This document shows, one piece after another, positions 5,640-57,129 of a DNA stretch of 64,000 nt (positions within the stretch are counted from its first letter, which is position 1; every line of letters starts with the position of its first letter). The translations under genes and the position numbers were made by a program. The stretch comes from Candidatus Saccharicenans subterraneus (GTDB lineage: Bacteria; Acidobacteriota; Aminicenantia; Aminicenantales; Saccharicenantaceae). The stretch spans positions 43,525 through 107,524 of the forward strand of contig QUAH01000003.1 in the NCBI GenBank assembly GCA_003426165.1. Direction: 5' to 3'. The notes beneath the pieces were generated by a model that saw only the letters and a program-made list of their open reading frames with translations, searched no databases and was not told where the DNA came from.

Positions 5640-6044
5640 TCAGTCTTTGCCAGACTCGAGCAACCTGACCCAGACCTGCCTGCTCCGGGGGCCGTCAAAC
5701 TCGCAAAGAAAGATTCCCTGCCAGGTGCCCAGCAGCAACTCACCTTTTTCAATCATGACTGTCAGAGAGCTTCCGACCAGCGAAGTTTTGATGTGGGCGG
5801 GGGAGTTGCCCTCGGTGTGGGCATAGGGCAGGTGGTCGGGCACGATTTTTCTCAGGGCCATCAGGATATCGGCCCTGACATCTGGGTCAGCCTGCTCGTT
5901 GATGGTCAGGCCGCAGGTGGTGTGGGGGCAGAAAATTACTGCCAACCCGGACCTTATTCCTGAGGCCCGGACCAGGGCCTGAATTTTTCCGGTTATGTTC
6001 AGAAATTCTTCTTTCCTGGAGGTTTCAAGGCTCAACTGATGCAC
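5640..6044 (-). CDS. YjbQ/UPF0047 family protein (secondary thiamine-phosphate synthase-like)
   Basis: 134 aa. GTG start with an AGGAGG RBS. Sequence resembles the YjbQ family (HTTCGLTINE.. HLKTSLVGSS). Confidence 0.7.
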   Translation of the reverse strand: MHQLSLETSRKEEFLNITGKIQALVRASGIRSGLAVIFCPHTTCGLTINEQADPDVRADILMALRKIVPDHLPYAHTEGNSPAHIKTSLVGSSLTVMIEKGELLLGTWQGIFLCEFDGPRSRQVWVRLLESGKD

Positions 6045-6090
6045 TTTTTCCTCCTGAAAAAATTTTATTAAAAAAAGTTCATTTTCCCAC

Positions 6091-6119
6091 TTGACAAAGC
6101 ATTTTTTATGTATTTATAT
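6091..6119 (+). promoter_or_regulatory. sigma-70 promoter of the nrd operon: TTGACA, about 17 nt spacer, TTATAT/TATATA
   Basis: Perfect -35 TTGACA at 6091-6096 and an AT-rich -10 near 6114-6120, inside an AT-rich 230-bp intergenic stretch. A GGGAGG RBS lies before the ATG at 6277. Confidence 0.4.
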
Positions 6120-6131
6120 ATATTGCCGAAA

Positions 6132-6147
6132 GCACAAGATTTAGTAT
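6132..6147 (+). promoter_or_regulatory. possible NrdR-box-like 16-mer overlapping the predicted transcription start
   Basis: GCACAAGATTTAGTAT matches acaCwAtATaTwGtgt, the NrdR consensus as I recall it from memory, at about 12 of 16 positions. I could not find a convincing second box. Weak. Confidence 0.2.
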
Positions 6148-6276
6148 CCAGGAGCCATGAACAGCACTAAATATTGTTTTTTCAGGCTTTTTTTCTGCCT
6201 GGGAAATAATAGCATAAAAGGGGCGCCTGGGGTTAGCGTGGAATCCGAAAAATTTTAGGTTTATAGGGAGGAAGGG

Positions 6277-8355
6277 ATGGTCAAGACCAGTAAAATCACC
6301 CGCATTAAAAAACGGGATGGCGCTATCGTTGATTTCACCCAGGACAAGATAACCAACGCCATCTACAAGGCGATGCAGTCCCAGGGCATCGACGACCACA
6401 TGGAAGCCCAGCATGTTTCTGACATCGTGGTTTTTGTCCTGGAGGAAAAATTCGGTGGCTACACGATTCCCTCGGTGGAGCAGATCCAGGACATCGTGGA
6501 AATGGTGCTGATGAAGCAGGGCTACCACGAGGTGGCCAAGGCCTACATTCTTTACCGCGAGAAGCACAAGGCCATCCGCGAGGCCAAGGAGACCGGCATC
6601 AACCTGGAAAGGCTGATCAAGGATTACATCAACGACCACGACTGGAAGGTCCGGGAAAACAGCAACGAGGGCGTGGTCAGCTTTTCCGGCCTGAACGCCA
6701 GGATTTCGGGTGAGGTCCTGTCCAACTTTGCCCTGAACAACCTTTATTCAGAGAGAATCAAGAAAGCCCACCTGGAGGGTGATTTTCACATCCATGACCT
6801 TTCCTACCCCATAGTCGGCTACTGCGCCGGCTGGTCCATGGAGAACCTGCTGCGCAAGGGTTTCGGCCATGTGCCCAACCAGGTCCATTCTCACCCGGCC
6901 AAGCACCTGGAAACGGCCACCCTGCACATGGTGAACTACATCGGCACCATGCAGGCCGAGTTTGCCGGGGCCCAGGCTTTTTCCAGCGTTGACACCTTCC
7001 TGGCCCCGTTTGTCCGGGCCGACGGCCTGAGCTATGACCGGGTCAAGCAGGACATCCAGAAACTCATTTTCGGGTTGAACGTTCCCTGTCGCTGGGGCTG
7101 GCAGACACCCTTCTCCAACCTGACCTTCGACTGGACGGTGCCCGAAGACCTGAAAAACAAGAAGGTCATCGTGGGTGGGGAAGAACTTGACTCCTGCTAC
7201 GGCGACTACCAGGAAGAAATGGACATGATCAACCGGGCCTTCCTGGAACTGATGATCGAGGGCGACCTCAAGGGCCGGGTTTTTACCTTTCCCATCCCGA
7301 CCTACAATATCACCAAGGACTTTGACTGGGACCATCCCAACGCCAGGCTGCTGTTTGAAGCCACGGCCAAGTACGGCATTCCCTATTTCCAGAATTACCT
7401 CGGGACCAACCTCAACCCGGGCGACATCCGGGCCATGTGCTGTCGGCTGAACCTGGACATGAGGGAACTGAAGACCCGTCCCGGGAACATGTGGGGAGCC
7501 GGCGACCAGACCGGGTCGATCGGAGTGGTCACCATCAACCTCAACCGCATCGGTTACGAAGCCCAGAGCAAGCAGGAGTTTTTCGACAAGCTGAGGGAGA
7601 TGATGGTCCTGGCCAAGGAATCGCTGGAGACCAAGCGGGAAGTGGTCAATAACATGCTGGAGCGGGGCCTGATGCCCTACACCAAGGTCTATCTCGGCCA
7701 CTTCGAGAACCATTTCTCAACCATCGGCATCTGCGGCATGCACGAGGCCTGCATGAATTTCCTGCACAAGGGCATCGGCACGCCGGAGGGCAAGGAATTT
7801 ACCATCGAGACCCTCAACTTCATGCGCGAGGTGCTCAAGGATTTCCAGGAAGAGACCGGGCATCTATACAACCTGGAGGCCTCCCCGGCCGAGTCCACCT
7901 CCTACCGCCTGGCCCGGCTGGACCGCCAGAAATACAAGAACATTTACACTTCCGGCACGGACAAGCACCCCTACCTGACCAACTCCACCCAGCTCAACGT
8001 CGACGCCACCAGGGATATCTTTGAAGCCCTGAAGCACCAGGAGGATATCCAGCCGCTCTACACCGGCGGGACCATCTTCCATGCTTTTCTGCCGGAAGCC
8101 ATTGACTGGAAGACCTGCCGCAAGCTGGTCCGGAAAATTGCCGAAACCAGGCTCCCGTATTACAGCATCACCCCGACCTTCAGCGTCTGTGACAACCACG
8201 GTTATCTCAAGGGGCAGCATCCTGCCTGTCCCGAGTGCGGCGCGGAAACGGAAGTGTTTTCCAGGATCGTTGGCTACCTGCGGCCGGTCAGGACCTGGAA
8301 TGACGGCAAGCAACAGGAGTTCAGCGACCGGGTAACCTATTCCAAGCTGGACTGA
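6277..8355 (+). CDS. nrdD: anaerobic ribonucleoside-triphosphate reductase (class III RNR)
   Basis: 692 aa. N-terminal ATP-cone (KITRIKKRDGAIVDF). C-terminal Zn ribbon CPECG and a glycyl-radical motif RIVGYLRPV. Confidence 0.9.
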   Translation: MVKTSKITRIKKRDGAIVDFTQDKITNAIYKAMQSQGIDDHMEAQHVSDIVVFVLEEKFGGYTIPSVEQIQDIVEMVLMKQGYHEVAKAYILYREKHKAIREAKETGINLERLIKDYINDHDWKVRENSNEGVVSFSGLNARISGEVLSNFALNNLYSERIKKAHLEGDFHIHDLSYPIVGYCAGWSMENLLRKGFGHVPNQVHSHPAKHLETATLHMVNYIGTMQAEFAGAQAFSSVDTFLAPFVRADGLSYDRVKQDIQKLIFGLNVPCRWGWQTPFSNLTFDWTVPEDLKNKKVIVGGEELDSCYGDYQEEMDMINRAFLELMIEGDLKGRVFTFPIPTYNITKDFDWDHPNARLLFEATAKYGIPYFQNYLGTNLNPGDIRAMCCRLNLDMRELKTRPGNMWGAGDQTGSIGVVTINLNRIGYEAQSKQEFFDKLREMMVLAKESLETKREVVNNMLERGLMPYTKVYLGHFENHFSTIGICGMHEACMNFLHKGIGTPEGKEFTIETLNFMREVLKDFQEETGHLYNLEASPAESTSYRLARLDRQKYKNIYTSGTDKHPYLTNSTQLNVDATRDIFEALKHQEDIQPLYTGGTIFHAFLPEAIDWKTCRKLVRKIAETRLPYYSITPTFSVCDNHGYLKGQHPACPECGAETEVFSRIVGYLRPVRTWNDGKQQEFSDRVTYSKLD

Positions 8356-30499: not shown

Positions 30500-31153
30500 T
30501 TAAAAACCGATTCCCAGGAGAACCGAGAAGCCGGTATTCCGGGCCTTGTCGGTCGGAACTGATGAGCCTTCCGACAGGATGTTGCCCAGCCCGTAATGGT
30601 AGCGGGCATCGACCGAGACCTTAAACAGAAGCGGTATCTTGATATCCAGGCCGAGTCCGCCAACCGCGGCCAGGGCGTTGCTCCTGAAATCGCTCTTGAT
30701 GTCTTCTTCTTCGCTGGTTCCCATGTAGGTCATCCTGACCTTGGCCTTTTGCAAAAAGCCGTAGGAGGGACCACCGAAAATGTAGAATTTTACCGGCCCG
30801 GCCGGAATGATGTTCAGCCTGACCAGAAGAGGTATTTCAATATAATCCAGCATGAGCCGAGCCTGGGCCAGGGAGGCCGGGTCGGTTGGGTCCAGCAGAA
30901 CCTGGGCTTCCATCCCGCGGCGGGAATAGAGAACTTCGGGCTGAAGGCCAATCGGCCCGAAATTGAGGCTGAGGAAAGCGCCAAAACAGTAGCCCTGAAG
31001 GTATTTCTGACCGGGCATGTCGATGGCCGGGCTGAAGACAATCTTGGAATTATTCAGTCCGCCCTTAACCCCGAAGGTGACCAGGGCTCGGGCCGGTGAA
31101 GCGGCCAGTGCCATGAACAATAGAATCAGGGAAATAACAAGCGTCTTCTTCAT
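30500..31153 (-). CDS. small outer-membrane beta-barrel protein (OmpA-like 8-strand barrel family)
   Basis: 217 aa. Signal peptide, AGGAGG RBS, terminal Phe. Paralogous to 36067-36690 (shared EVLY..., Y(V/I)EIPLL blocks). Confidence 0.65.
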   Translation of the reverse strand: MKKTLVISLILLFMALAASPARALVTFGVKGGLNNSKIVFSPAIDMPGQKYLQGYCFGAFLSLNFGPIGLQPEVLYSRRGMEAQVLLDPTDPASLAQARLMLDYIEIPLLVRLNIIPAGPVKFYIFGGPSYGFLQKAKVRMTYMGTSEEEDIKSDFRSNALAAVGGLGLDIKIPLLFKVSVDARYHYGLGNILSEGSSVPTDKARNTGFSVLLGIGF

Positions 31154-31447
31154 CGCAACCTCCTTCGAACTAATCTAATAAATTTGCCCTGCCCGTGGCA
31201 AGAAATTTTTAGGGGCAGGCCAATCTTTTCTGCCTGTTATATTAGTCGGTTGGCCGAGAAATTCTTGAAATTGGGCCGGTTCTGGTTTTGCCCTTTTTCT
31301 GGATAAATATGTTCGATTATCGTTCCGGACTTATCAATACGACGTTCCCGCCTTAATCAGTCCTGTCTTTCAACAATAAGTACTTCAGTCTCAATTCAGG
31401 TTTTTGTTATACTTTTCATGATCGTTGAGAACACTTGAGGATAGGTT

Positions 31448-32599
31448 ATGAAAATTGGAAGATTGTTTAGTGCAGCCATTTTTGTTTTGACACTTCTTCT
31501 TCTTTTCACCTTCTCTCCTGCCGGCCAGACTGGAGAGCGCTGGGTGCATCCGGCCTGCCAACCCCTGGAAGTGAGCAAGAAGGGACCATTTGTCCTGATG
31601 CCTGACGGCGCCCTGGCCGCGGTCGATGACCGGGGCTTTTCGGTAAGCCGGGACGGTGGACAAACCTGGTCGCCACCCGTCTTCATCTGCCAGGGGCTCA
31701 ACCCGGCCGAGCCGGCTTCCTATTACCTTTTGTGCACCAGGAATAACGTTCTTATCCTGGTTTATTTGAATTTCGAAGGCAGGAAGTTCAGCTGGGATAA
31801 CGAGAGAAACGAGCCGGGCGATTGCCGCCTGGAAGTCTGGGCCGTAAGGAGCCTGGATGGAGGCCGGACCTGGGTTGACAACCAGCGGATACTCGAGGGT
31901 TATAACCCAAATTTCTTCGGGCTGGTCCAGCTATCAGGCGGCCGGGTGGTGGTGCCGTTGCAGCACCTGGTCTCCGACCCCGGGCGTCTGGTGGTCTGTT
32001 CTTTTTATTCTGACGATGACGGCCTGACCTGGAGGCGCAGCAACTGGATTGACCTGGGCGGGCACGGTCATCATGACGGGGCCTTCGAACCGACGATTGC
32101 CGAGCTGCCAGACGGTCGGGTCTTGATGCTGATCAGAACCGGGCTGGACCGTTTCTGGCAGGCTATTTCCGAGGACGGAAAATACTGGCGCACGATACAG
32201 CCATCAAGAATCGATGCCAGCAGTTCTCCCGGTTATCTCCTCCGCCTCAGCAGCGGTCGCTATGCCCTGGTCTGGAACAGGCTGAATCCGGAAGGCCGGG
32301 TCTTTGAAAAAACCAGGCCCACGCCTTTCCATTCAGAACTTCCGGCTTCCTGGCACCGGGAGGAGCTGAGCCTGGCCTTTTCGGATGATGGATTTAACTG
32401 GTCTCGGCCGGTGGTCATCGCCCGGCAGCCTGGCGGCCAGCTCAGCTATCCCTATGTCTTTGAACCCGAGCCAGGCGTGCTCTGGGTTATTGCTGGCTTT
32501 GCCTTCAAAAAATTCTGGCAGGACCCGGCTCCGCTGGCCCTGAAGCTGCGCGAGGCGGATTTTGTCGGGTCCGGGAAGATTAAGAATTCAAAAAGGTGA
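31448..32599 (+). CDS. BNR-repeat (sialidase/GH33-like beta-propeller) protein
   Basis: 383 aa with a signal peptide and five BNR motifs SxDxGxTW (SRDGGQTW, SLDGGRTW, SDDDGLTW, SEDGKYW, SDDGFNW). Confidence 0.65.
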   Translation: MKIGRLFSAAIFVLTLLLLFTFSPAGQTGERWVHPACQPLEVSKKGPFVLMPDGALAAVDDRGFSVSRDGGQTWSPPVFICQGLNPAEPASYYLLCTRNNVLILVYLNFEGRKFSWDNERNEPGDCRLEVWAVRSLDGGRTWVDNQRILEGYNPNFFGLVQLSGGRVVVPLQHLVSDPGRLVVCSFYSDDDGLTWRRSNWIDLGGHGHHDGAFEPTIAELPDGRVLMLIRTGLDRFWQAISEDGKYWRTIQPSRIDASSSPGYLLRLSSGRYALVWNRLNPEGRVFEKTRPTPFHSELPASWHREELSLAFSDDGFNWSRPVVIARQPGGQLSYPYVFEPEPGVLWVIAGFAFKKFWQDPAPLALKLREADFVGSGKIKNSKR

Positions 32600-46768: not shown

Positions 46769-48385
46769 ATGGAATTTTCTGTGAGGACTTCCGGGCGGCG
46801 AGCGGGCCTGGTCGTTTCCCTGGCCCTGGCTGCCATGCTGGTCCTGGGCCTGTTCCTGGGTGCTTCCGTCCAGGAAGAGACCCCCAGGCCCAAGCCAGGG
46901 GGAGAACTAAGGGTCAGGCCTTATGGTTCAGCTTTGAATACCGACCTGGACCCGGCCGGAAACGGTTATTCCCTGGTGGTGGGAAATCTTTACGAAGGCC
47001 TGGTCAGGCTGGACCAGAACCTGAACGTCGTTCCCGGCCTGGCTGACTACTGGTCGGTCTCTGAAAACGGCCGGAAAGTTACCTTCTACCTCAGGAAGCA
47101 AGCTGTCTTTCATAATGGACAGGCGGTTACCGCCTCCGATGTCAAGTTTTCTTACCAAAGGCTATTCCAGCTGAAGAGCCGGCCTGTCTTTTATGAGTTT
47201 GCCAGCAGGATCGAGGGGGGAGAGGAATTCTGGCGGGGGGCCGCTTCCGAGGTCAGCGGGCTCAGGGTGGTGGATGATAAGGTCCTGGAGATTTACTGGA
47301 AGCAACCGGGCGTTACCAATTTCTACTTCCTGGCAGCTGGCTTCGCCGGGATTCTCCCGGCCGGCCCGGTTCAGTCTCAGAAAAAAAGATTTTTTGACAG
47401 GCCGGTTGGAGCCGGCCCCTTCAAGTTCGATTACTGGCTGCGGGACAGGCGCCTTAACATCATCGGCGTCAGGCTGGTCAGGAATGATAATTATTTTACC
47501 AGGAAACCGTTCCTGGAAGCGGTCGAGGTCAGTCCTTTTTTCCAGCTGGATGATTTCCTTCAGAACGAAATCCAGGTTATTCCCTACCTGACCTTCAGGA
47601 TATCCAGGGATAAGTACCAGATCCTGGAAAGCAACCTGCTCCAGCTGAATTATCTCTTCTTCAGCTGCCACCTGCCACCCTTTGACCGGCCAGAAGTCCG
47701 CCGGGCCCTGCAGGCCTTTGTTGAAAAAAGACAGCTGGCCGGGCTGGCTTCGACCACGGCCAATTTTTGCCAGCCGATGGACAGCTTTATCCCTCCTTTC
47801 CTTCCCGGTTTTATGCCTGAAGGCGCCTGGCCGGAACAGAGCCTGAGCCAGGTGTTGAAAGTCCTGGAAGAGGCGGGACTTGGCCGGGTGGACCGGCCCC
47901 TGGTGGTCAATGCCTATTTCCAGGTAACCAATAAAGACCTCATCCCGAGCATCTATGAGTTCTTGAGAGAGGAGCTAAGACCGGCCGGGATTAAACTGGA
48001 GCTGAAGTCAAATTATTCGGCCGAGGAGCTGGCCAGGGACAACACCCCGTTCATTTTTTTCCTGGAATGGAGCCCCGAACTGCCCGACCCGGAATTCATT
48101 CTCCGGCCGCTGTTTCATTCCGCCGGTTCTGCGAACCGGGAGCTATTTCATTACCGGAACCCGAAGGTTGACGAACTCCTGGAACTTCAGAAGAACGGCC
48201 TGAGCTTTGAGCGCCGGGTTAACCTCTTCAGGGAAATCGAGAAGATTCTGCAGGCTGATACCCCGGCCCTGCCTCTCTTTTTCCATAAGCAGAGGCTGGC
48301 CTACCAGCCCTATCTTAAGAACCTGAAAGCCCAGCCTCAGGGCCTGCTCTGCCTGAATCTCCGGGATGTCTGGATGGACCGATGA
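46769..48385 (+). CDS. extracellular solute-binding protein, family 5 (peptide/nickel/opine type)
   Basis: 538 aa with a signal peptide and a family-5 SBP fold pattern. No ABC permease or ATPase genes are adjacent. It is translationally coupled to the histidine kinase. Confidence 0.65.
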   Translation: MEFSVRTSGRRAGLVVSLALAAMLVLGLFLGASVQEETPRPKPGGELRVRPYGSALNTDLDPAGNGYSLVVGNLYEGLVRLDQNLNVVPGLADYWSVSENGRKVTFYLRKQAVFHNGQAVTASDVKFSYQRLFQLKSRPVFYEFASRIEGGEEFWRGAASEVSGLRVVDDKVLEIYWKQPGVTNFYFLAAGFAGILPAGPVQSQKKRFFDRPVGAGPFKFDYWLRDRRLNIIGVRLVRNDNYFTRKPFLEAVEVSPFFQLDDFLQNEIQVIPYLTFRISRDKYQILESNLLQLNYLFFSCHLPPFDRPEVRRALQAFVEKRQLAGLASTTANFCQPMDSFIPPFLPGFMPEGAWPEQSLSQVLKVLEEAGLGRVDRPLVVNAYFQVTNKDLIPSIYEFLREELRPAGIKLELKSNYSAEELARDNTPFIFFLEWSPELPDPEFILRPLFHSAGSANRELFHYRNPKVDELLELQKNGLSFERRVNLFREIEKILQADTPALPLFFHKQRLAYQPYLKNLKAQPQGLLCLNLRDVWMDR

Positions 48386-49866
48386 TCAGAATTCCCAGAC
48401 CGCGAATTTCCATCTACGTCCAGCTGGTCTTCTGGACTTCGGTTATCATTCTGCTTTTGATGTTCGGGGTCCTGTACGTAATCCAGACCAGGGAAGTTAA
48501 GGCCATTTACCAGGAGAAGAGGGAGCGCGGCCTGGTTATGGTCAGGTACATTTCCGAGATGAATGTCAGGAGCCTGGTGCTCGGAGACCTGGAGTCCATA
48601 GATGAAAACATTTCGGGATTGATCAGGGAAGACCTGGCCTACGTAATTTTTTACGATGCCGACAGCAAGCCGGTCGTGGTCAGCGAGAGCATTGCCGACA
48701 ATGCCGAGGTGATCAACCAGACCAGCTGTGCCGGCGAGGTGTCCCCAGGCGACGTTTTTTATAACACCATCAGGTTGAACCGTGGCCGGAGCTTTCAGGA
48801 AGTGATGGAGGTCGAGGTCCCGGTTTTCGTTCCCGGTTCCGAGAAAAAGTGGGGTTCGGTTAAAATCGGCTTGAAACTGGAAGACGTTTTCCGCCGGGTC
48901 CAGAGAACCCGGCTGGTGCTCCTGGGCTTCGGGCTGGCTGCCTTTCTGCTGACGGTGCTCGGGGCCAACCTGCTGGCCAGGAGGATTACCCGGCCCATCA
49001 AGAACCTGGTCGAAGGTACACGTCGAATTTCCCGGGGGGATTTTAGCTACCGGATTCCGGTTATCTCCAGGGATGAAATCGGAGACCTGACCCGCAGCTT
49101 CAACCAGATGGCCGAGGAATTGCTCCGGGCCCGGGAGCAGATGGAAGAGGCCAACCGGCGCCTGCTCCAGGCCGAGAAACTGGCCTCCATCGGCCGGCTT
49201 TCGGCCACCATCGCCCACGAAATCCGCAACCCGCTGACCTCGGTTAAGTTAAACATCCAGAAGCTGGCCGAGATATCGACCCTGGATGAGCTGGAGAGAG
49301 AGCACCTGGCCATTGCCCAGGCCGGCATCGAGCAGATCGAGAAGTTCATCAAGGACTTGCTGAGCTACACCCGGGCCTCCAGCCTTCAGAAGGATTATTT
49401 TTCGCTGGCCGAAGTCCTGGACGAATCTCTGAAATTGTTGCAGCCTTCCCTGAAGGAAAAAGAAATCGTGGTGGAAAAGGACTACCAGCCGGACTTGCCG
49501 CCGGCCTACGTCGATGCCGACCGGCTGCGCCAGGTCTTCTTAAATGTTCTTCGCAATGCCTACGAGGCGGTGGACCAGGGAGGCAGGATAGAAATTTCTC
49601 TCCGGATGAACCGGGCAGAAGACGGTTCCTGTTTCGAGGTCCGGATCAGCGACAATGGCTGTGGCATTCAGGAGAAGGACCGGGAAAATATCTTTGAACC
49701 ATTCTTCACCACCAAGAGTTCCGGGGCCGGCCTGGGGCTGGCCAACGCCCGCCGGATCCTGGACCAGCACGGGGGCACCATCCGGGTAGTTGATAAAGAG
49801 GGACGGGGTAGCTGTTTTCTGATCATTCTGCCCTGTCCGGAAAGCAAGCAGGAGGCTCAGACATGA
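48382..49866 (+). CDS. sensor histidine kinase (2 TM, HAMP, HisKA, HATPase)
   Basis: H-box SIGRLSATIAHEIRNPL and GxGxG ATPase motifs. ATGA overlap with the SBP gene. Confidence 0.85.
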   Translation: MIRIPRPRISIYVQLVFWTSVIILLLMFGVLYVIQTREVKAIYQEKRERGLVMVRYISEMNVRSLVLGDLESIDENISGLIREDLAYVIFYDADSKPVVVSESIADNAEVINQTSCAGEVSPGDVFYNTIRLNRGRSFQEVMEVEVPVFVPGSEKKWGSVKIGLKLEDVFRRVQRTRLVLLGFGLAAFLLTVLGANLLARRITRPIKNLVEGTRRISRGDFSYRIPVISRDEIGDLTRSFNQMAEELLRAREQMEEANRRLLQAEKLASIGRLSATIAHEIRNPLTSVKLNIQKLAEISTLDELEREHLAIAQAGIEQIEKFIKDLLSYTRASSLQKDYFSLAEVLDESLKLLQPSLKEKEIVVEKDYQPDLPPAYVDADRLRQVFLNVLRNAYEAVDQGGRIEISLRMNRAEDGSCFEVRISDNGCGIQEKDRENIFEPFFTTKSSGAGLGLANARRILDQHGGTIRVVDKEGRGSCFLIILPCPESKQEAQT

Positions 49867-51227
49867 CCAGAGTTCTGGTAATAGAGGATGATTCCTTGGT
49901 CAGCCGGACCATCGCCACGCATCTCCGGAAAAAAGGCTTCGAGCTGAAGCTGGCCGAGACCGGCGAGGAAGGGTTGAAGCTCTACAAAGATTTTCAACCG
50001 GACTTAACCCTGCTGGACGTCAAGCTGCCCGACATCAATGGCCTGGAGGTGCTCAGGCAGATCAGGCAGACCAGCAAGAACGCGGCCGTGGTGGTGATGA
50101 CCGCCTTTGACGATATGAAAACCACGGTGGAAGCCATCAAGGCCGGGGCCTTTGAATACCTGGTGAAGCCGCTGGACTACCTGGAGCTGGACCTGACCAT
50201 CGACAAGGCCTTCCAGCTCAAGGCGCTGGAAGAAAAGGTCAGCTACCTGATCGAAGAAAAGCAAAAGGAATACCAGATAGACAACATCATCGGTCGGTCT
50301 CCCCAGATGCGGGAGGTCTTCAAGATGATAGGCTCGGTGGCCAATACCAGGACCAACGTCCTGATCCAGGGAGAGAGCGGGACCGGCAAGGAGCTGGTGG
50401 CCAAGGCCATCCATTACAACAGCCCCTTCCGGGATGAGCCCTTCATCGTCATTAACTGCTCGGCCATTTCCGATACCCTGCTGGAGTCAGAGCTCTTCGG
50501 CCATGTCAAGGGAGCTTTTACCGACGCCGTCAGCGAGACCCGCGGCAAGTTTGAGATCGCCGGCAAGGGAACGCTGTTCCTGGATGAAATCGGGGACATC
50601 TCTCCCAACCTCCAGTCCAAGCTCCTCCGGGTCATAGAAACCAGGGATTTCATGAAGGTTGGAGGCGAGAAGATATTGAAGACCGAGGCCAGGATAATTG
50701 CCGCCACCAACCAGAACCTTAAGGAGCTGGTCAGCCAGGGCAAGTTCCGGGAAGACCTGTACTACCGTCTCAAGGTGGTGGAGATAACCCTGCCGCCGCT
50801 CCGGGACAGGCGCGAGGACATTCCCGAGCTGGTGGCCTACCTGCTGGAAAAGATAAACCGGGAGTTGAAGAAAAATGTCAGGAAAGTTCCACCCGAAGTC
50901 ATGGACTATCTGGTCAACCAGCCCTGGAAGGGTAATGTCCGGGAACTGGAGAATGCCCTGACCAGGGCCGTCATCCTGGCCAAGGGAGATGTCATTCTGA
51001 AAGAACACCTGCCTTTTGAGCCGGCCCCTCAGGCCCAGGCCCAGGACAGGTTTCAGCTGCCCAAGGAAATGGTGCCGCTTTGGGAAATAGAGAAAAGGTA
51101 CATCCAGTATGTGCTGGAAGCCACGCGGGGCAGCAAGACCAGGGCCTGCCAGATACTGGAAATCAGCCGGCCAACCCTCGATAAAAAAATCAAGGATTAC
51201 GACCTCAAGGTGGAAACCTCGGAGTGA
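49863..51227 (+). CDS. sigma-54-dependent response regulator (NtrC family: REC, AAA+, HTH)
   Basis: GESGTGKE Walker A, the GAFTDA motif (GAFTGA-type sigma-54 contact), and C-terminal Fis-type HTH. ATGA overlap with the kinase gene. Confidence 0.9.
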   Translation: MTRVLVIEDDSLVSRTIATHLRKKGFELKLAETGEEGLKLYKDFQPDLTLLDVKLPDINGLEVLRQIRQTSKNAAVVVMTAFDDMKTTVEAIKAGAFEYLVKPLDYLELDLTIDKAFQLKALEEKVSYLIEEKQKEYQIDNIIGRSPQMREVFKMIGSVANTRTNVLIQGESGTGKELVAKAIHYNSPFRDEPFIVINCSAISDTLLESELFGHVKGAFTDAVSETRGKFEIAGKGTLFLDEIGDISPNLQSKLLRVIETRDFMKVGGEKILKTEARIIAATNQNLKELVSQGKFREDLYYRLKVVEITLPPLRDRREDIPELVAYLLEKINRELKKNVRKVPPEVMDYLVNQPWKGNVRELENALTRAVILAKGDVILKEHLPFEPAPQAQAQDRFQLPKEMVPLWEIEKRYIQYVLEATRGSKTRACQILEISRPTLDKKIKDYDLKVETSE

Positions 51228-51350
51228 TGGGGTCTGGCCTGCTCCCAGTCCTCCTGTAAAAAAAATTAACAGGCTGCAAAGTTTATTGGGGGAAGGGGCG
51301 ATAGTTCTCGGGGTGGCTGTCCTGGTTTCCCCTGAAATTTTTTCGATTTC

Positions 51351-51366
51351 TGGCACGAAACCTGCT
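51351..51366 (+). promoter_or_regulatory. sigma-54-type promoter TGGCAC-N5-CTGCT upstream of the orphan receiver gene
   Basis: GG at 51352-53 and GC at 51364-65 have the correct 10-nt separation. The predicted TSS is about 13 nt before the ATG at 51390. Confidence 0.45.
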
Positions 51367-51965: not shown

Positions 51966-52832
51966 ATGAAAGCTGAGTCCGAATGCTATCTCTGCCTCCT
52001 GGGGCAGGTGCTGAGAACGGCCGGCGTCCTGGGGCTGGAGGAACCGGCAGCCAGGGAACTGGCCCGCGAAGCCTGCGCCTTTCTGGCCGGGGCTGATTTT
52101 AACCGGACTCCTCCCGAGATTTCAGAAGACCTTTATTCCCTCCTGGCCCGTCTAACCGGCAATCCTGACCCTTACCGGGGGCTGAAAAAAGAACATATCG
52201 ACCGGGCCCTGAAGCTTTATCCTCAATTGCAAAACCTGGCCAGAACCTCAGCTGACCCGCTTCGGGCCGCCCTGGAGATTTCGCTGGCCGGGAACGTGAT
52301 AGATTTCGGGGCCAATTCCGACGAAGACTGGTTGAAAGACGGGAGATTCTTAACGCCGGGGCCCTTCGGGATCGATGATTACCCGCTCTTGAAAGAAGAC
52401 CTGGAAAAGGCCGAGCGAATCGTCTTCCTGGGCGATAATGCCGGGGAAACAGTCTTTGACCGGCTGTTCATAGAAGTGTCCGGACGAAGGCCAGTATATG
52501 CGGTCCGAGAGGCGCCCATAATCAATGATGCCACCCTGCAAGAAGCGATTGATTCCGGCCTGGCCGGGGTGGCTGACCTGGTCACGAGCGGCTGCCGGGC
52601 GCCGGGAACGGTTTACGGTCAGTGCTCACCCGCCTTCAAAAAAATCCTGGAACAGGCTGACCTGATCATCAGCAAGGGCCAGGGGAATTTTGAATGCCTG
52701 GAACAGGTCAGGGGCCCTTTTTATTTTCTATTGAAGGCCAAGTGCCGCGTGGTCTCCAGGTACCTGGGGGTTCCACAGGGAAGCCTGATCATCATGAGGT
52801 CCAGGAATTATAGCCCCCGTCTGCTGGCCTGA
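51966..52832 (+). CDS. DUF89 (ARMT1-like damage-control phosphatase) family protein
   Basis: 288 aa. N-terminal CxxC and the GDNAGE block are characteristic of DUF89. Confidence 0.6.
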   Translation: MKAESECYLCLLGQVLRTAGVLGLEEPAARELAREACAFLAGADFNRTPPEISEDLYSLLARLTGNPDPYRGLKKEHIDRALKLYPQLQNLARTSADPLRAALEISLAGNVIDFGANSDEDWLKDGRFLTPGPFGIDDYPLLKEDLEKAERIVFLGDNAGETVFDRLFIEVSGRRPVYAVREAPIINDATLQEAIDSGLAGVADLVTSGCRAPGTVYGQCSPAFKKILEQADLIISKGQGNFECLEQVRGPFYFLLKAKCRVVSRYLGVPQGSLIIMRSRNYSPRLLA

Positions 52833-52896
52833 CAGGCTGTCTGTTATCATTTTTCGTAAAAGCAGGGCCTGTGTTTTCTATTTCCAAACCTTATTT

Positions 52897-52915
52897 CCGT
52901 AAAGTATTTTTACGG
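52897..52915 (+). promoter_or_regulatory. palindrome CCGTAAAgtattTTTACGG (candidate enhancer/activator site) about 75 bp upstream of the sigma-54 promoter
   Basis: Perfect 7-bp inverted repeat. A related half-site TTTCGTAAAAG lies at 52851-52861. Confidence 0.3.
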
Positions 52916-52985
52916 TCCTTAAACTTTTTTTATGGTTTATTCGTCCAATTTCCTAACTTTTAAGGGAATTTCAGGTCCAAAATTT

Positions 52986-53001
52986 TGGCACAAATCTTGC
53001 T
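52986..53001 (+). promoter_or_regulatory. consensus sigma-54 promoter TGGCAC-N5-TTGCT
   Basis: Exact -24 TGGCAC and -12 TTGC with canonical spacing, read directly. It sits in a low-GC island and a sigma-54 activator gene lies 1.7 kb upstream. Confidence 0.6.
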
Positions 53002-53095
53002 TATATAAATGGCGGGTAGAGAAAATGGCTGGAAGAAGCAGAGCAACGAGAACAAACGAGAGACAGTTATTATACATAGATACTTTTGCTGGTCC

Positions 53096-53152
53096 GGGGA
53101 GGGAGATATTGAGATTTGACGGGCTGAACAGAAAGTCAATCTCTCCCTCCCC
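53096..53152 (+). repeat. 17-bp stem (1 mismatch) with 23-nt loop: GGGGAGGGAGATATTGA...TCAATCTCTCCCTCCCC
   Basis: Inverted repeat read directly, inside the small transcript. Confidence 0.5.
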
Positions 53153-53254
53153 CTCTATTTATTCGATAGGCGATGAGCGCACCCATAAATTTATAAATGC
53201 CTCCTTTTTGCCCTTCTTTGCCCTTCTTTCCATTCCCCCTTCCTTCAATTAAAC

Positions 53255-53293
53255 AGAGGGGTGCACGGCGGCACCCCTCTCTTTCTTTTTTCT
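53255..53293 (+). terminator. intrinsic terminator: AGAGGGGTGC-acggcg-GCACCCCTCT plus CTTTCTTTTTTCT
   Basis: Perfect 10-bp GC-rich stem and a U-run immediately after the ORF stop. It could also act on the converging NTPase gene. Confidence 0.7.
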
Positions 53294-53351
53294 AAGCTAA
53301 ATCAAAGCAGGAAAGTATTTTTGAGCCTGGTTGGCCCGACTGTATTCCTGT

Positions 53352-53894
53352 TCAAACCGGGCCAAGCAGGGTCTTGATTTTTTCCAGCAACTCGGACTGT
53401 AGTCTCTCCCGGTTGGCCGGGGTAAGCTCGTAGAGCTGCGTGTCCGGGCTGGACTTTATCCGTTCTATGAACGGCGTTCCCCGCCAGGCGATGGTGGCCA
53501 GGAGATGACCCGGAGCCGAAACCAATCGCAGCACGATTTCCCGAAATTTTTCCGAGAGACATTCCATTTTGCCTATCTCGTCTATGACCACCAGCCTGGT
53601 TTCGGGCGCGAAGAACCCGACCGATGCCAGGAAATTTTCAAAGCCGCGAAGGTCCACCCGGTATTTTCCCACCCGGTAAGGTGTCTTGAATTCAACATGG
53701 CTGAGAACGGCCCGCCGTCCGTCGGGGCTCATCAATTCGAAGCCGAGCCTGGTTCCCTTTTCTCTTATTTCCCGGGTAATAAAGCCGGCAATCCCGTTCT
53801 TGTCCGGCAGCCGCTCGAGAAGGCCGGCCACCAGGGTGGTTTTGCCGGAACCGGGCAGCCCCGTCACCAGGATTTTAAGCCCTTTATCGGTCAT
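53352..53894 (-). CDS. THEP1-type nucleoside-triphosphatase (P-loop NTPase)
   Basis: 180 aa with Walker A GLPGSGKTT and Walker B VVIDEIGKME. Overall resembles archaeal/Thermotoga-type NTPase THEP1. GGAGAAG RBS. Confidence 0.6.
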   Translation of the reverse strand: MTDKGLKILVTGLPGSGKTTLVAGLLERLPDKNGIAGFITREIREKGTRLGFELMSPDGRRAVLSHVEFKTPYRVGKYRVDLRGFENFLASVGFFAPETRLVVIDEIGKMECLSEKFREIVLRLVSAPGHLLATIAWRGTPFIERIKSSPDTQLYELTPANRERLQSELLEKIKTLLGPV

Positions 53895-55475: not shown

Positions 55476-56711
55476 ATGTTGCACCAGGCTGGCCTGATTG
55501 CTCCATTCTCTCTGCTCATCTTAATAATTTACCTGTCTGTTGAAGCCGTTCATTTTCGCCGCCGGCTGAAGAAAATTCCCGTGAGGATAGCTGTCGGCGG
55601 CATCAGGGGAAAGTCCAGCATAACCAGGCTGATCGCCTGGGGGCTGCGGCAGGCCGGGTTGAAGGTGATGGCCAAGACTACCGGTTCCAGGCCGGTTCTG
55701 ATCTATCCCGATGGACACGAGCAGGAAATCAGCCGGCGGGGCCGGCCGACCATCCTGGAGCAGAAGAAGCTGGTGGAGGTGGCTGCGGCCGCAGAGTCGG
55801 ATTTCCTGGTCAGCGAGATGATGAGCATTCAGCCCGAATGCCTTGGAGCCGAGGGGCGGCATCTTTTGCGACCACAGGTCCTGGTGCTTAGCAATTTCCG
55901 GCCTGACCATACTGAATTTCTCGGGAGGCACAGGGAGGAGGTGGCCCGGGCCCTGCTGGAAGCGGTTCCTGCGGGCACCATCGTTTTTATTCCCGAAGAA
56001 GAATTCCAGCCCTGGATGGGGAACCTGGCCCGGGAAAAAGGATTTGAGCTGATGGCGGTCAGGAGCAGTATCGAATCTGCCCGCCTGACCGAGATTCTTC
56101 CATACCCGGAATTTGAGCCAAATGCCAGGCTGGCCCTGGCCGTCCTGCAGCATTTTGGCCTGTCGGCCGAGCGAGTCCAGGACGGCTGGTCTGGTTTGAA
56201 CCCAGACCTTGGCCGGCCCAGGGTCTGGCGAGTCAGAGTGTCGGGGAAACATCACTTTCACCTGGTCAGCCTGTTTGCGGCCAACGACCCGGAGTCAAGC
56301 CTGCTGGCCATGGAGCTAATAACCAGAAGGCTGGGCTGGCAGGAAGCCCGTAAAATCGGGCTGCTGAGCCTGCGGGCTGACCGCGGCGACCGGAGCCGGC
56401 AATGGGTTGAGTTCCTTCAGTCGGGGGCGGCAGACTTCCTGGAATCACTGATTCTAATCGGACCGGGAGCCAGGGCAGTGGGCCGAAAACTCAGAAACTG
56501 GTCCCGGAAAACTGGCCGCCCGCTATTAATTCTGCCTGAGAGGGAACCGGAGAAGGGTCTTGAAGAAATAAAAAAACTGGTTGCCGACTGCCAGAAAAGA
56601 CTGCCCGGCGCGGAAGAGAGATGCCTGGTCTTCGGGCTGGGCAACATTGGCGGCTTCGGCCGCAAACTTATAGAATACCTGGAAAGGACCGCCGATGCCG
56701 TCAGAATATAG
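55476..56711 (+). CDS. pgsB: poly-gamma-glutamate synthase, Mur-ligase-like subunit
   Basis: 411 aa. PVRIAVGGIRGKSSITRL...AKTTGS...GRPTILEQKK lines up residue by residue with Bacillus CapB/PgsB (PVRVNINGIRGKSTVTRL...GKTTGT...NIGEQKE). C-terminal VFGLGNIGGFG matches IYGVGNIHGAA. Confidence 0.85.
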   Translation: MLHQAGLIAPFSLLILIIYLSVEAVHFRRRLKKIPVRIAVGGIRGKSSITRLIAWGLRQAGLKVMAKTTGSRPVLIYPDGHEQEISRRGRPTILEQKKLVEVAAAAESDFLVSEMMSIQPECLGAEGRHLLRPQVLVLSNFRPDHTEFLGRHREEVARALLEAVPAGTIVFIPEEEFQPWMGNLAREKGFELMAVRSSIESARLTEILPYPEFEPNARLALAVLQHFGLSAERVQDGWSGLNPDLGRPRVWRVRVSGKHHFHLVSLFAANDPESSLLAMELITRRLGWQEARKIGLLSLRADRGDRSRQWVEFLQSGAADFLESLILIGPGARAVGRKLRNWSRKTGRPLLILPEREPEKGLEEIKKLVADCQKRLPGAEERCLVFGLGNIGGFGRKLIEYLERTADAVRI

Positions 56712-57129
56712 TTCCCTTTTTCTCGGCCTGGTGCTGGCTCTTATTTTCAGCGAGCTAACCGGGATTTCACCCGGGGGACTGATAGTTCCCGGCTATTTCG
56801 CCCTTTACCTGGACCAGCCCTGGCGCCCGCTGGCCACCCTGGCCGTGGCTTTCCTGGCCCTCGGCCTCTACCGCCTGGCCGGCAATTACCTCATCCTTTT
56901 CGGCCGGCGTCGCTTTGTCTTCATGATTCTGGTGGGAGTGGTCCTGGCCCAGCTCTGGAACCTGCTGCTGCCGGGGTCGCTGGCCGAGCCGATTTCGCTC
57001 AGGGTCATTGGCTGGGTGGTGCCCGGGCTCCTGGCTTCCAACCTGGAGAGGCAGAAGATTCTGCCGACCCTGGCTTCCTTGATTCTTGTTTCTGTCTTAA
57101 CTTTTCTTCTGGTCGGGCTCTTTTTCTGA
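56695..57129 (+). CDS. pgsC: poly-gamma-glutamate biosynthesis membrane protein PgsC/CapC
   Basis: 144 aa. LIFSELTGISPGGLIVPGYFALYLDQP, ILFGRRRF and IGWVVPGLLASNLERQ match CapC blocks. 17-nt overlap with pgsB. Confidence 0.8.
   Translation: MPSEYSSLFLGLVLALIFSELTGISPGGLIVPGYFALYLDQPWRPLATLAVAFLALGLYRLAGNYLILFGRRRFVFMILVGVVLAQLWNLLLPGSLAEPISLRVIGWVVPGLLASNLERQKILPTLASLILVSVLTFLLVGLFF

Follow-up and report, generated by a model that had tools for sequence, protein, structure and literature searches.

The stretch of DNA considered here is a window of 64,000 nucleotides (nt) from contig QUAH01000003.1 of Candidatus Saccharicenans subterraneus, in which a gap of 519 base pairs (bp) separates two convergent genes, an ARMT1/DUF89-like gene on the plus strand (51966-52832) and an NTPase_1 gene on the minus strand (53352-53894). 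The gap houses an inverted repeat, a sigma-54 promoter, an open reading frame (ORF) of 75 codons, a long hairpin (H1) and an intrinsic terminator, and genes for a sensor histidine kinase and a sigma-54 enhancer-binding protein (the activator) lie upstream of it. Judged by sequence comparison, the element is a new family, namely a predicted sigma-54- and activator-controlled small transcript which is encoded beside its two-component system and bears the signatures of both coding and RNA-level function. The island also has a distinct composition. Its guanine-plus-cytosine (GC) content of 41.3% is the lowest of any 516-nt stretch in the window, in agreement with the low-GC island described in the original prediction, which a model had made from the letters alone; the window as a whole measures 56.3% GC rather than the approximately 59% stated there. 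The only other 516-nt stretches of the window below 45% GC are found at about 5851-6566 and about 31001-31516. The coordinates first assigned to the palindrome, promoter, leader, ORF, stem-loop, terminator and activator gene were each confirmed.

Relatives of the locus were assembled from ten species-level genome-contig loci, in which ARMT1 is 58-93% identical, and from ten loci reached by protein look-up, giving a comparison set of 20 distinct orthologous transcripts with the window included. One contig (L085) stops at the stop codon, and the terminator was thus assessable in 19 of the 20 copies; the breadth of the family was judged via protein databases. Promoter, ORF, hairpin and 3' block are kept in 20/20 loci, and the terminator in 19/19 complete copies. 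It is by this conservation across 20 orthologous loci, and not by the promoter match or the fold alone, that the finding exceeds chance. The promoter itself, TGGCAC-N5-TTGC (52986-53000, plus strand; -24 GG at 52987-52988 and -12 GC at 52999-53000), is the sole exact match within the 64 kb; since 13 of 100 shuffles yield at least one such match, it is not significant by itself. The -24/-12 element was nevertheless found in every ortholog, in the form TGGCA(C/T)-N5-TTGC and with a variable spacer, and no sigma-70-like promoter was predicted on the plus strand. Promoter geometry and terminator position together predict a primary transcript of about 282 nt (53012-53293, plus strand), and the predicted lengths in 19 orthologs, terminator included, range from 270 to 291 nt.

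Upstream of the promoter lies an inverted repeat, CCGTAAA-N5-TTTACGG (52897-52915), which is a putative upstream activating sequence and sits 87 bp from the -24 element. Its core, GTAAA-N5-TTTAC, is exact in 19 of the 20 loci, at -75 to -89 from TGGCAC, and has three matches in the 64 kb when one mismatch is allowed. The related half-site that had been pointed out at 52851 is indeed present, but it is retained in the closest relatives only. The repeat is followed at 52916-52935 by a degenerate second copy, TCCTTAAACTTTTTTTATGG, which matches the first site at 80% in direct orientation, with a spacing of 20 bp, and carries a conserved T-tract. The T-run and a (T)GTAAT/TTAAA motif of this copy are present in all loci, and it may provide the activator with another binding site or serve to bend the DNA.

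The protein that presumably binds the GTAAA-N5-TTTAC repeat is the activator, a response regulator with REC, AAA+ Sigma54_activat and HTH_8 domains (49863-51227, plus strand; Pfam, Sigma54_activat E=6e-69). Its gene is the most conserved of the cluster, with an identity of 82-99% across loci, and precedes the small ORF wherever the sequence of a locus extends that far. The sensor histidine kinase (HAMP-HisKA-HATPase_c by Pfam; 48382-49866, plus strand) is syntenic with the small transcript in ten orthologous loci, which are all those reaching far enough upstream, and a single-domain receiver gene (Pfam) lies downstream of the activator gene. The order of kinase, activator, receiver, (ARMT1) and small ORF is constant. 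It holds in two loci from which ARMT1 is missing (L086 and L087), as well as in four (L014, L086, L089 and L094) where, in the absence of the NTPase and M24 genes, pgsB is the next gene downstream. Conservation and synteny thus support the initial view that the sigma-54 transcription unit is complete and linked with the enhancer-binding protein nearby, and the unit is a conserved one.

A second sigma-54-type promoter, TGGCACGAAACCTGC (TGGCAC-N5-CTGC, 51351-51365), is located 25 nt ahead of the receiver gene, and a one-mismatch version of the repeat, GTAAA-N5-TTAAC (51256-51270), is located 95 bp upstream of this promoter. Of the 19 loci checked, 18 have a matching promoter (TGGCAC-N5-YTGC) in front of this gene, the exception being L014, where none was found; the promoter is nearly always accompanied by GTAAA-N5-TT(T/A)AC 82-96 bp upstream. 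This recurrence suggests that the activator probably also drives transcription of the receiver gene and ARMT1. Similar arrangements were seen at three distant loci with ARMT1 homologs of 43-46% identity (L026 8268-8368, L031 3544-3634 and L072 6391-6473), where GTAAA-N5-TTTAC-like repeats stand 68-86 bp upstream of TGGCA(C/T)-N5-TTGC. Two of these loci, L026 and L031, are labelled Aminicenantes and L072 just "Bacterium"; the promoter in L026 precedes a longer open frame, not the small transcript. The pair of activator and site seems to be older than the small transcript.

The 75-codon ORF (53025-53252, plus strand) begins with an ATG 13 nt past the predicted transcription start at 53012. Its N-terminal portion of about 53 codons is variable and rich in K and R, and its C-terminus, ...DERT(H/Q)KFINASFLPFFALLSIPPSFN, is invariant. 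No stop codon interrupts this frame in any of the 20 copies, whereas the other two frames contain one to seven stops each in the variable part; under dinucleotide shuffling a stop-free frame has a probability of 0.01-0.08 per sequence, in at least six deeply diverged lineages. All nine internal indel blocks are multiples of three (3, 6 or 9 nt) in a nucleotide alignment made without regard to codons, and 1-nt indels are confined to the 13-nt leader and to the positions just past the stop codon. An in-frame ATG is found at +5 to +15 in every sequence, and the position of the stop codon is constant, its identity varying among TAA, TAG and TGA. Changes in the 3' block consist of one synonymous TTC>TTT (L087) and the stop-to-stop substitutions TAA>TAG and TAA>TGA. 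From the frame open in 20/20 copies, the in-frame indels, the conserved ATG and the stop-to-stop changes, it is concluded that selection keeps the 75-codon frame open, which would imply translation.

Other gene models for the region were rejected. No longer conserved gene spanning it was found among the orthologs, and gene calls of 101-130 residues reach upstream of the promoter and are not conserved. An internal TTG start at 53109, used in calls of 47 residues (P0005 and P0009-P0013), has its Shine-Dalgarno sequence inside H1 and is probably an annotation artefact, because the TTG is absent in at least six lineages. The G-rich arm of H1, GGAGGGAG (53096-53111 region), is a perfect Shine-Dalgarno look-alike 6 nt ahead of this TTG, and several public annotations therefore call a 47-residue protein.

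By the measures of molecular evolution, the first two thirds or so of the ORF is free of amino-acid constraint. Over the first 53 codons or so, the ratio of nonsynonymous to synonymous differences per site (pN/pS) is 0.5-2.2, with a mean near 0.9, and substitutions favour none of the three codon positions; for ARMT1 in the same genome pairs the ratio is 0.14-0.39, with the usual excess at third positions. Most columns of the variable part hold 4-12 different residues. An A/T motif, A(C/T)ATAGAT (Y/H-I-D), in the ATATAGAT region (53079-53086; columns 79-86 of alignment A2), is kept in most lineages, and the ATA within it is invariant in all, the rest of the 5' half being variable.

The protein databases hold 26 homologous clusters, which all end in ASFLPFFALLSIPPSFN and share an invariant C-terminus of 17 residues. 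Every named source record among them is Saccharicenans, and in every source that names an organism the family is restricted to Ca. Saccharicenans. A hidden Markov model (HMM) search of 1.84 billion representatives recovered the same clusters and no further family member, its sole extra match being a weak one (E=4.7e-06) in a protein of 742 residues. The AlphaFold2 model, made from the 26-sequence alignment, has a mean predicted local distance difference test score (pLDDT) of 56 and a predicted template modelling score (pTM) of 0.22, and the only element that it offers is a C-terminal helix at residues 51-68. The peptide matched nothing in Pfam, PADLOC or PHROGs, nothing in the PDB below E=0.85, and in NCBIfam, Pgs proteins included, only TcmP, with a score of 17 bits, the cutoff being 53. 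The suggestion of a secreted peptide fell away, as neither a signal sequence nor another feature of secreted peptides was found. A type I toxin, a precursor of a ribosomally synthesized and post-translationally modified peptide (RiPP) and a PgsE-like peptide were likewise rejected, for want of a long hydrophobic helix, of a consistently adjacent maturation enzyme and of a family match.

The pattern of conservation is reversed at the 3' end of the transcript, where the hairpin H2, a CU-rich tract and the terminator make up a near-invariant module (53172-53293, plus strand). In L011 the module shows 98% identity over 121 nt, though the ARMT1 of this locus is only 63% identical. The last 78 coding nucleotides show 0-3 differences in every pair of sequences, even with a proportion of synonymous differences (pS) of 0.7-0.8 in the flanking regions. 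At 16 of the last 17 codon positions the 20 genomes all use the same codon; of the 95 residues that never vary in the ARMT1 genes of these genomes, just 2 are encoded by one codon throughout, and the longest stretch of unchanged nucleotides there is 5. On this comparison, the 3' third of the ORF and the terminator are under a nucleotide-level constraint that coding cannot explain.

The first part of the module, H2, is a helix of the RNAalifold consensus (GAGCGCA/UGCCUC, 53175-53203, plus strand) with an AU-rich loop of 16 nt; its stem is invariant and its loop variable. The loop sequence AUAAAUUUAUAAAU (53185-53198) has at its end, immediately ahead of the CU tract, a (T)ATAAAT that hardly varies; it could be a -10-like box, belonging to an internal promoter, or else the place where a ribonuclease cuts to free the 3' module. 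The CU-rich tract, CUUUUUGCCCUUCUUUGCCCUUCUUUCCAUUCCCCCUUCCUUCAAU (53204-53249, plus strand), extends over about 46 nt, is 85% pyrimidine (purine fraction 0.15) and is unpaired in the consensus, hence its prediction as single-stranded. It is nearly invariant in the 20 genomes, the copy in L087 carrying the single synonymous change given above. Within the tract an exact tandem decamer, UUUGCCCUUC, occurs twice (53207-53226) and is read in two codon frames, and it is therefore a feature of the RNA or DNA and not a peptide repeat. The 3' arm of H2 (53198-53203), joined to the CU tract, spells CCUCCUUU, which is identical to the core of the 16S anti-Shine-Dalgarno sequence; in the predicted structure, H2 would partly sequester the anti-Shine-Dalgarno-like GCCUCC.

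The module closes with the intrinsic terminator found by the terminator scan (53255-53293, plus strand; stem AGAGGGGUGC/GCACCCCUCU), in which a stem of 10 bp, seven of them GC, and a loop of 6 nt (53255-53280) are followed by a T-run to 53293. The stem begins 2-3 nt past the stop codon in all loci and is identical in 18 of 18 aligned sequences, and its loop changes in one clade only. Farther on, a 16-nt inverted repeat with 88% complementarity (53323-53373) extends over the stop codon of the convergent NTPase gene. As this repeat is without a T-run, the hairpin at 53255-53280 may serve as a bidirectional terminator for both genes. An origin from a mobile element or phage was rejected, an invariant 33-mer being absent from viral contigs.

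A scan of the 64-kb window with all 4227 Rfam models returned nothing at gathering level. The best permissive matches at the locus were microRNA-type hairpins and, among the weak sub-threshold matches of other kinds, RsaE (RF01820), which scored 18.3 bits against a gathering threshold of 79 (E=2.8). The likeness to Qrr and GlmY/GlmZ that had been drawn from the architecture is therefore not one of homology, the scan having stayed far from any gathering score.

The hairpin H1 (53096-53152, plus strand), identified as an inverted repeat and by RNAalifold, lies within the variable part of the ORF. Its G-rich arm GGGGAGGGAGA (53096-53112) and C-rich arm UCUCCCUCCCC (53136-53152) are 17 nt long and 94% complementary, enclose a loop of 23 nt, are followed by a U-rich tail and bear lineage-specific extensions. 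Its core, GGAGGGAG/CUCCCUCC, forms one of the three helices of the RNAalifold consensus, together with H2 and the terminator. H1 folds with -16 to -29 kcal/mol in all 19 lineages, and 6 of its 16 pairs are changed on both sides, a number which is reached by one of 500 shuffles. Paired cells amount to 88% for H1 and 94% for the three-helix structure, against no more than 66% for slid controls of the latter. In two lineages (L088 and L091) the pairing is preserved by a compensatory G>A / C>U change at the cost of the amino acids encoded, E becoming K and P becoming S (GRE to GRK and SPSP to SSSP), and base pairing in H1 thus overrides residue identity.

Folding of the whole transcript is unremarkable on the plus strand (z score -1.8), and the minus strand folds better (z -4.9), which we read as being helped by G-U pairs. 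A transcript from the opposite strand was nonetheless rejected, because promoter, U-tract and frame all belong to the plus strand and the minus strand has no conserved ORF or start. A specific long-range pairing of the 5' purine-rich part with the 3' CU-rich part, by which the start codon would be sequestered, was discarded as an effect of composition (z -1.6 to +1.2 against dinucleotide shuffles).

Taken together, the results favour, at a probability of roughly 0.55, a new genus-restricted and activator-controlled dual-function RNA, the CU-rich 3' module of which is probably a riboregulator. It is the sRNA-like 3' body, that is, one resembling a small regulatory RNA (sRNA), with its anti-Shine-Dalgarno-like seed, that leads to the preference for a dual-function RNA acting in trans. 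The alternatives of regulatory sRNA or small peptide, as originally framed, both left their signal in the locus; the either/or between them does not hold, the two being found together.

In the mechanism proposed, in which the transcript would serve the neighbouring two-component system as its local output, the kinase, in response to a presumed upstream signal, would phosphorylate the NtrC-type activator, which would bind the inverted repeat some 87 bp upstream and, acting across the T-tract, would open the sigma-54 holoenzyme at TGGCAC-N5-TTGC. Transcription would start near 53012 and end at the terminator, and ribosomes would translate the 75-codon frame from +14 to a point 2 nt short of the terminator stem. 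The product would be a peptide that is largely disordered apart from a conserved helix at its C-terminus; alternatively, translation itself may be what matters. The 3' portion of about 110 nt would constitute an sRNA-like module made of a small hairpin, the unpaired CU-rich seed of about 46 nt and the terminator, and would possibly be cleaved from the messenger RNA (mRNA) before acting. This CU-rich module most likely acts in trans; it may pair with purine-rich regions of mRNAs, of the Shine-Dalgarno type, or its repeated motif may serve to titrate an RNA-binding protein. Activator binding, expression, translation in vivo and the role of the CU-rich module in trans are what we infer from the sequence.

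Several points weigh against the dual-function RNA. Peptides rich in F, L, S and P are necessarily CU-rich, and the composition of the tract could be partly driven by the protein. The family is narrow, comprising one genus, and its phylogenetic depth is limited; yet flanking synonymous sites are saturated, with pS up to 0.8. The structures of H2 and the terminator are without support from covariation, because their stems never vary. Candidate targets of the CU tract within the 64-kb window were at chance level, with 10-mers at most, and duplex energies were uninformative. Finally, the 13-nt leader contains no clear Shine-Dalgarno sequence.

An ordinary sigma-54-dependent gene for a small protein, the 75-residue product of which would be the sole output and would act through a conserved helix at its C-terminus (...KFINASFLPFFALLSIPPSFN), is considered unlikely. 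In its favour, the frame stays open, the start codon is retained, internal indels leave the frame intact, one stop codon is exchanged for another, the last 17 residues are invariant in the 26 clusters, the C-terminal helix is the only confident AlphaFold2 element, and several public metagenome-assembled genomes (MAGs) carry the ORF as a hypothetical protein. The nucleotide invariance would then have to reflect a need at the mRNA level, such as stability, translation rate or terminator efficiency. Single-codon use at 16 of 17 positions, as compared to 2 of 95 in the neighbouring gene, however, far exceeds what protein selection produces, and the terminator stem, which is non-coding, is equally invariant. 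The tandem decamer is out of frame, pN/pS is near 1 over two thirds of the protein, and the compensatory changes in H1 override amino-acid identity.

A tentative and likewise improbable variant is a translation-gated riboregulator, in which selection would maintain the frame just so that ribosomes can travel along it, and not for the sake of its peptide, pN/pS being near 1. Ribosome transit through H1 and to within 2 nt of the terminator would then decide both whether the full-length CU-rich module is made and whether it lies exposed or hidden. If true, the sigma-54 two-component signal would be coupled to the translational state of the cell, a design which to our knowledge is undescribed for activator-controlled sRNAs and would be found in a phylum from which no sRNA is known to have been characterised.

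More doubtful is a translated leader or attenuator, in which translation of the ORF would control termination at H1, at the final terminator or at both. A terminating or stalled ribosome would occlude the terminator stem, the invariant C-terminus might be an arrest peptide, and read-through towards the poly-gamma-glutamate genes pgsB and pgsC would be gated. In all loci the ORF does run across H1, which has a U-rich tail, and leaves a gap of 2-3 nt between its own end and the terminator stem, and in its upstream part only the openness of the frame is kept, as if the passage of ribosomes were what counts. An invariant peptide of about 17-24 residues fits approximately into the ribosomal exit tunnel. 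In every lineage, moreover, the 3' arm of H1 and its U-tail can pair with the stop-linker and the 5' arm of the terminator (-10 to -16 kcal/mol; 83% of cells paired, against no more than 66% for slid controls). This alternative helix, however, is mostly made of G-U pairs, contains one compensatory pair and does not exceed shuffle controls on covariation. The gene order speaks on both sides: among 16 loci, the gene next to the transcript is a co-oriented pgsB in four, with pgsB/pgsC further on in the others, whereas in 12 of the 16 it is the convergent NTPase gene, and read-through would be antisense. In the loci without the NTPase gene, pgsB has its own conserved AT-rich upstream region, and an arrest peptide would leave the invariance of synonymous sites unexplained.

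The least probable reading is the one preferred in the original prediction, a purely non-coding sigma-54-dependent sRNA with an incidental, untranslated ORF, for although pN/pS near 1 and even codon-position substitutions over the first 53 codons, the absence of a clear Shine-Dalgarno sequence, a peptide without family or fold, and RNA-level conservation with an sRNA-like 3' module would suit it, it is contradicted by 20 of 20 open frames against 1-7 stops in each of the others, 9 of 9 internal indels in frame, the conserved in-frame ATG and a stop position kept through TAA, TAG and TGA changes.

The dual-function RNA may be compared with several known systems. In Pseudomonas, crcZ adjoins cbrB downstream, and CrcZ depends on CbrB and RpoN (PMC5113210). 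The present locus resembles the CbrA/CbrB-CrcZ system in layout, a small transcript being encoded downstream of the genes for a kinase and an NtrC-family activator and in their orientation. It also resembles that system in the dependence of the transcript's own promoter on RpoN and the activator, which is predicted here, and in its repeated short single-stranded motifs, likewise predicted (PMC5113210). It has no homology to CrcZ in sequence or structure, there being no Rfam match. CrcZ is non-coding, about 400 nt long and provided with A-rich Hfq/Crc motifs, whereas the transcript here is of about 280 nt, CU-rich and equipped with a conserved ORF. Unlike cbrB and crcZ, activator and transcript are separated here by one or two genes (receiver and ARMT1).

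Linkage to a regulatory gene is also known for qrr1, which is linked to luxO. The glmY gene adjoins its cognate two-component genes (PMC8745638) and has a sigma-54 promoter at which GlrR/QseF is the activator (PMC3045617, PMC6075780). The GlrK/GlrR (QseE/QseF)-GlmY and LuxO-Qrr systems share with the present one a small RNA, a sigma-54 promoter and upstream activator sites (for Qrr: bioRxiv 10.1101/2021.07.01.450815). GlmY acts as a protein decoy and Qrr by pairing through a conserved 5' seed; neither is homologous to the present transcript and neither has a conserved ORF, and the conserved segment here is 3'-proximal and overlaps coding sequence.

Among RNAs with two functions, Spot 42/SpfP, AzuCR and VcdRP likewise combine a small ORF and a conserved RNA segment on one transcript, the regulatory role being presumed in the present case, and VcdRP is of similar size, at 306 nt (PMC12612679). 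In Spot 42/SpfP and AzuCR the coding and base-pairing regions overlap, and ribosomes and pairing can thus interfere (PMC12612679). None of the three is reported in that source as dependent on sigma-54 or an activator. Their ORFs encode 15-30 residues, compared to 75 here in a frame that nearly fills the transcript, and differ from the present one also in that its N-terminal two thirds appears free of amino-acid constraint.

Another parallel is GlnZ, a 3' sRNA released from the NtrC/sigma-54-induced glnA mRNA (PMC9731577). In both cases a sigma-54-induced mRNA, here a predicted one, has a 3' end, composed of seed and terminator, that is more conserved than its coding body. A release similar to that of GlnZ, with the AU-rich loop of H2 as the cleavage site, is plausible. 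GlnZ, however, is located in the 3' untranslated region of a large enzyme gene, whereas the module here overlaps the last 17 or so codons of a tiny ORF. With RsaE/RoxS (RF01820) and other sRNAs with C/U-rich seeds the transcript shares unpaired, C-rich motifs, which here are predicted and might bind to G-rich sequences at ribosome-binding sites; it is not a member of the RsaE family, as its Rfam score indicates, and architecture, phylum and promoter type differ.

The locus offers a concrete signalling chain, composed of a sensor kinase, a sigma-54 activator, a defined motif and one small transcript that is more conserved than any flanking gene. The Aminicenantes (OP8) are abundant, uncultured anaerobes, and we know of no characterised regulatory RNA in them. 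The combination of an open frame without amino-acid constraint and a nucleotide-invariant CU-rich tail is an unusual evolutionary signature, and provides a clean example from nature in which to ask how a single RNA can serve both coding and riboregulation. In MAG annotation the element is filed as a "hypothetical protein" of 47-130 residues, a label which hides the element at the RNA level.

The wider neighbourhood gives some indication of physiological context. A gene for an SBP_bac_5 binding protein, of the peptide/nickel type (46769-48385), overlaps the start of the kinase gene and is itself preceded by a gene for a Peptidase_M19 dipeptidase (L001 1-692); these neighbours hint that the two-component system senses peptides. 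On the other side of the locus follow pgsB and pgsC (NCBIfam equivalogs; 55476-57129 in the window), with the M24 peptidase and NTPase genes intervening except in four lineages. A peptide-binding protein, a dipeptidase and poly-gamma-glutamate synthase in the vicinity hint at a role of the system in peptide or glutamate physiology.

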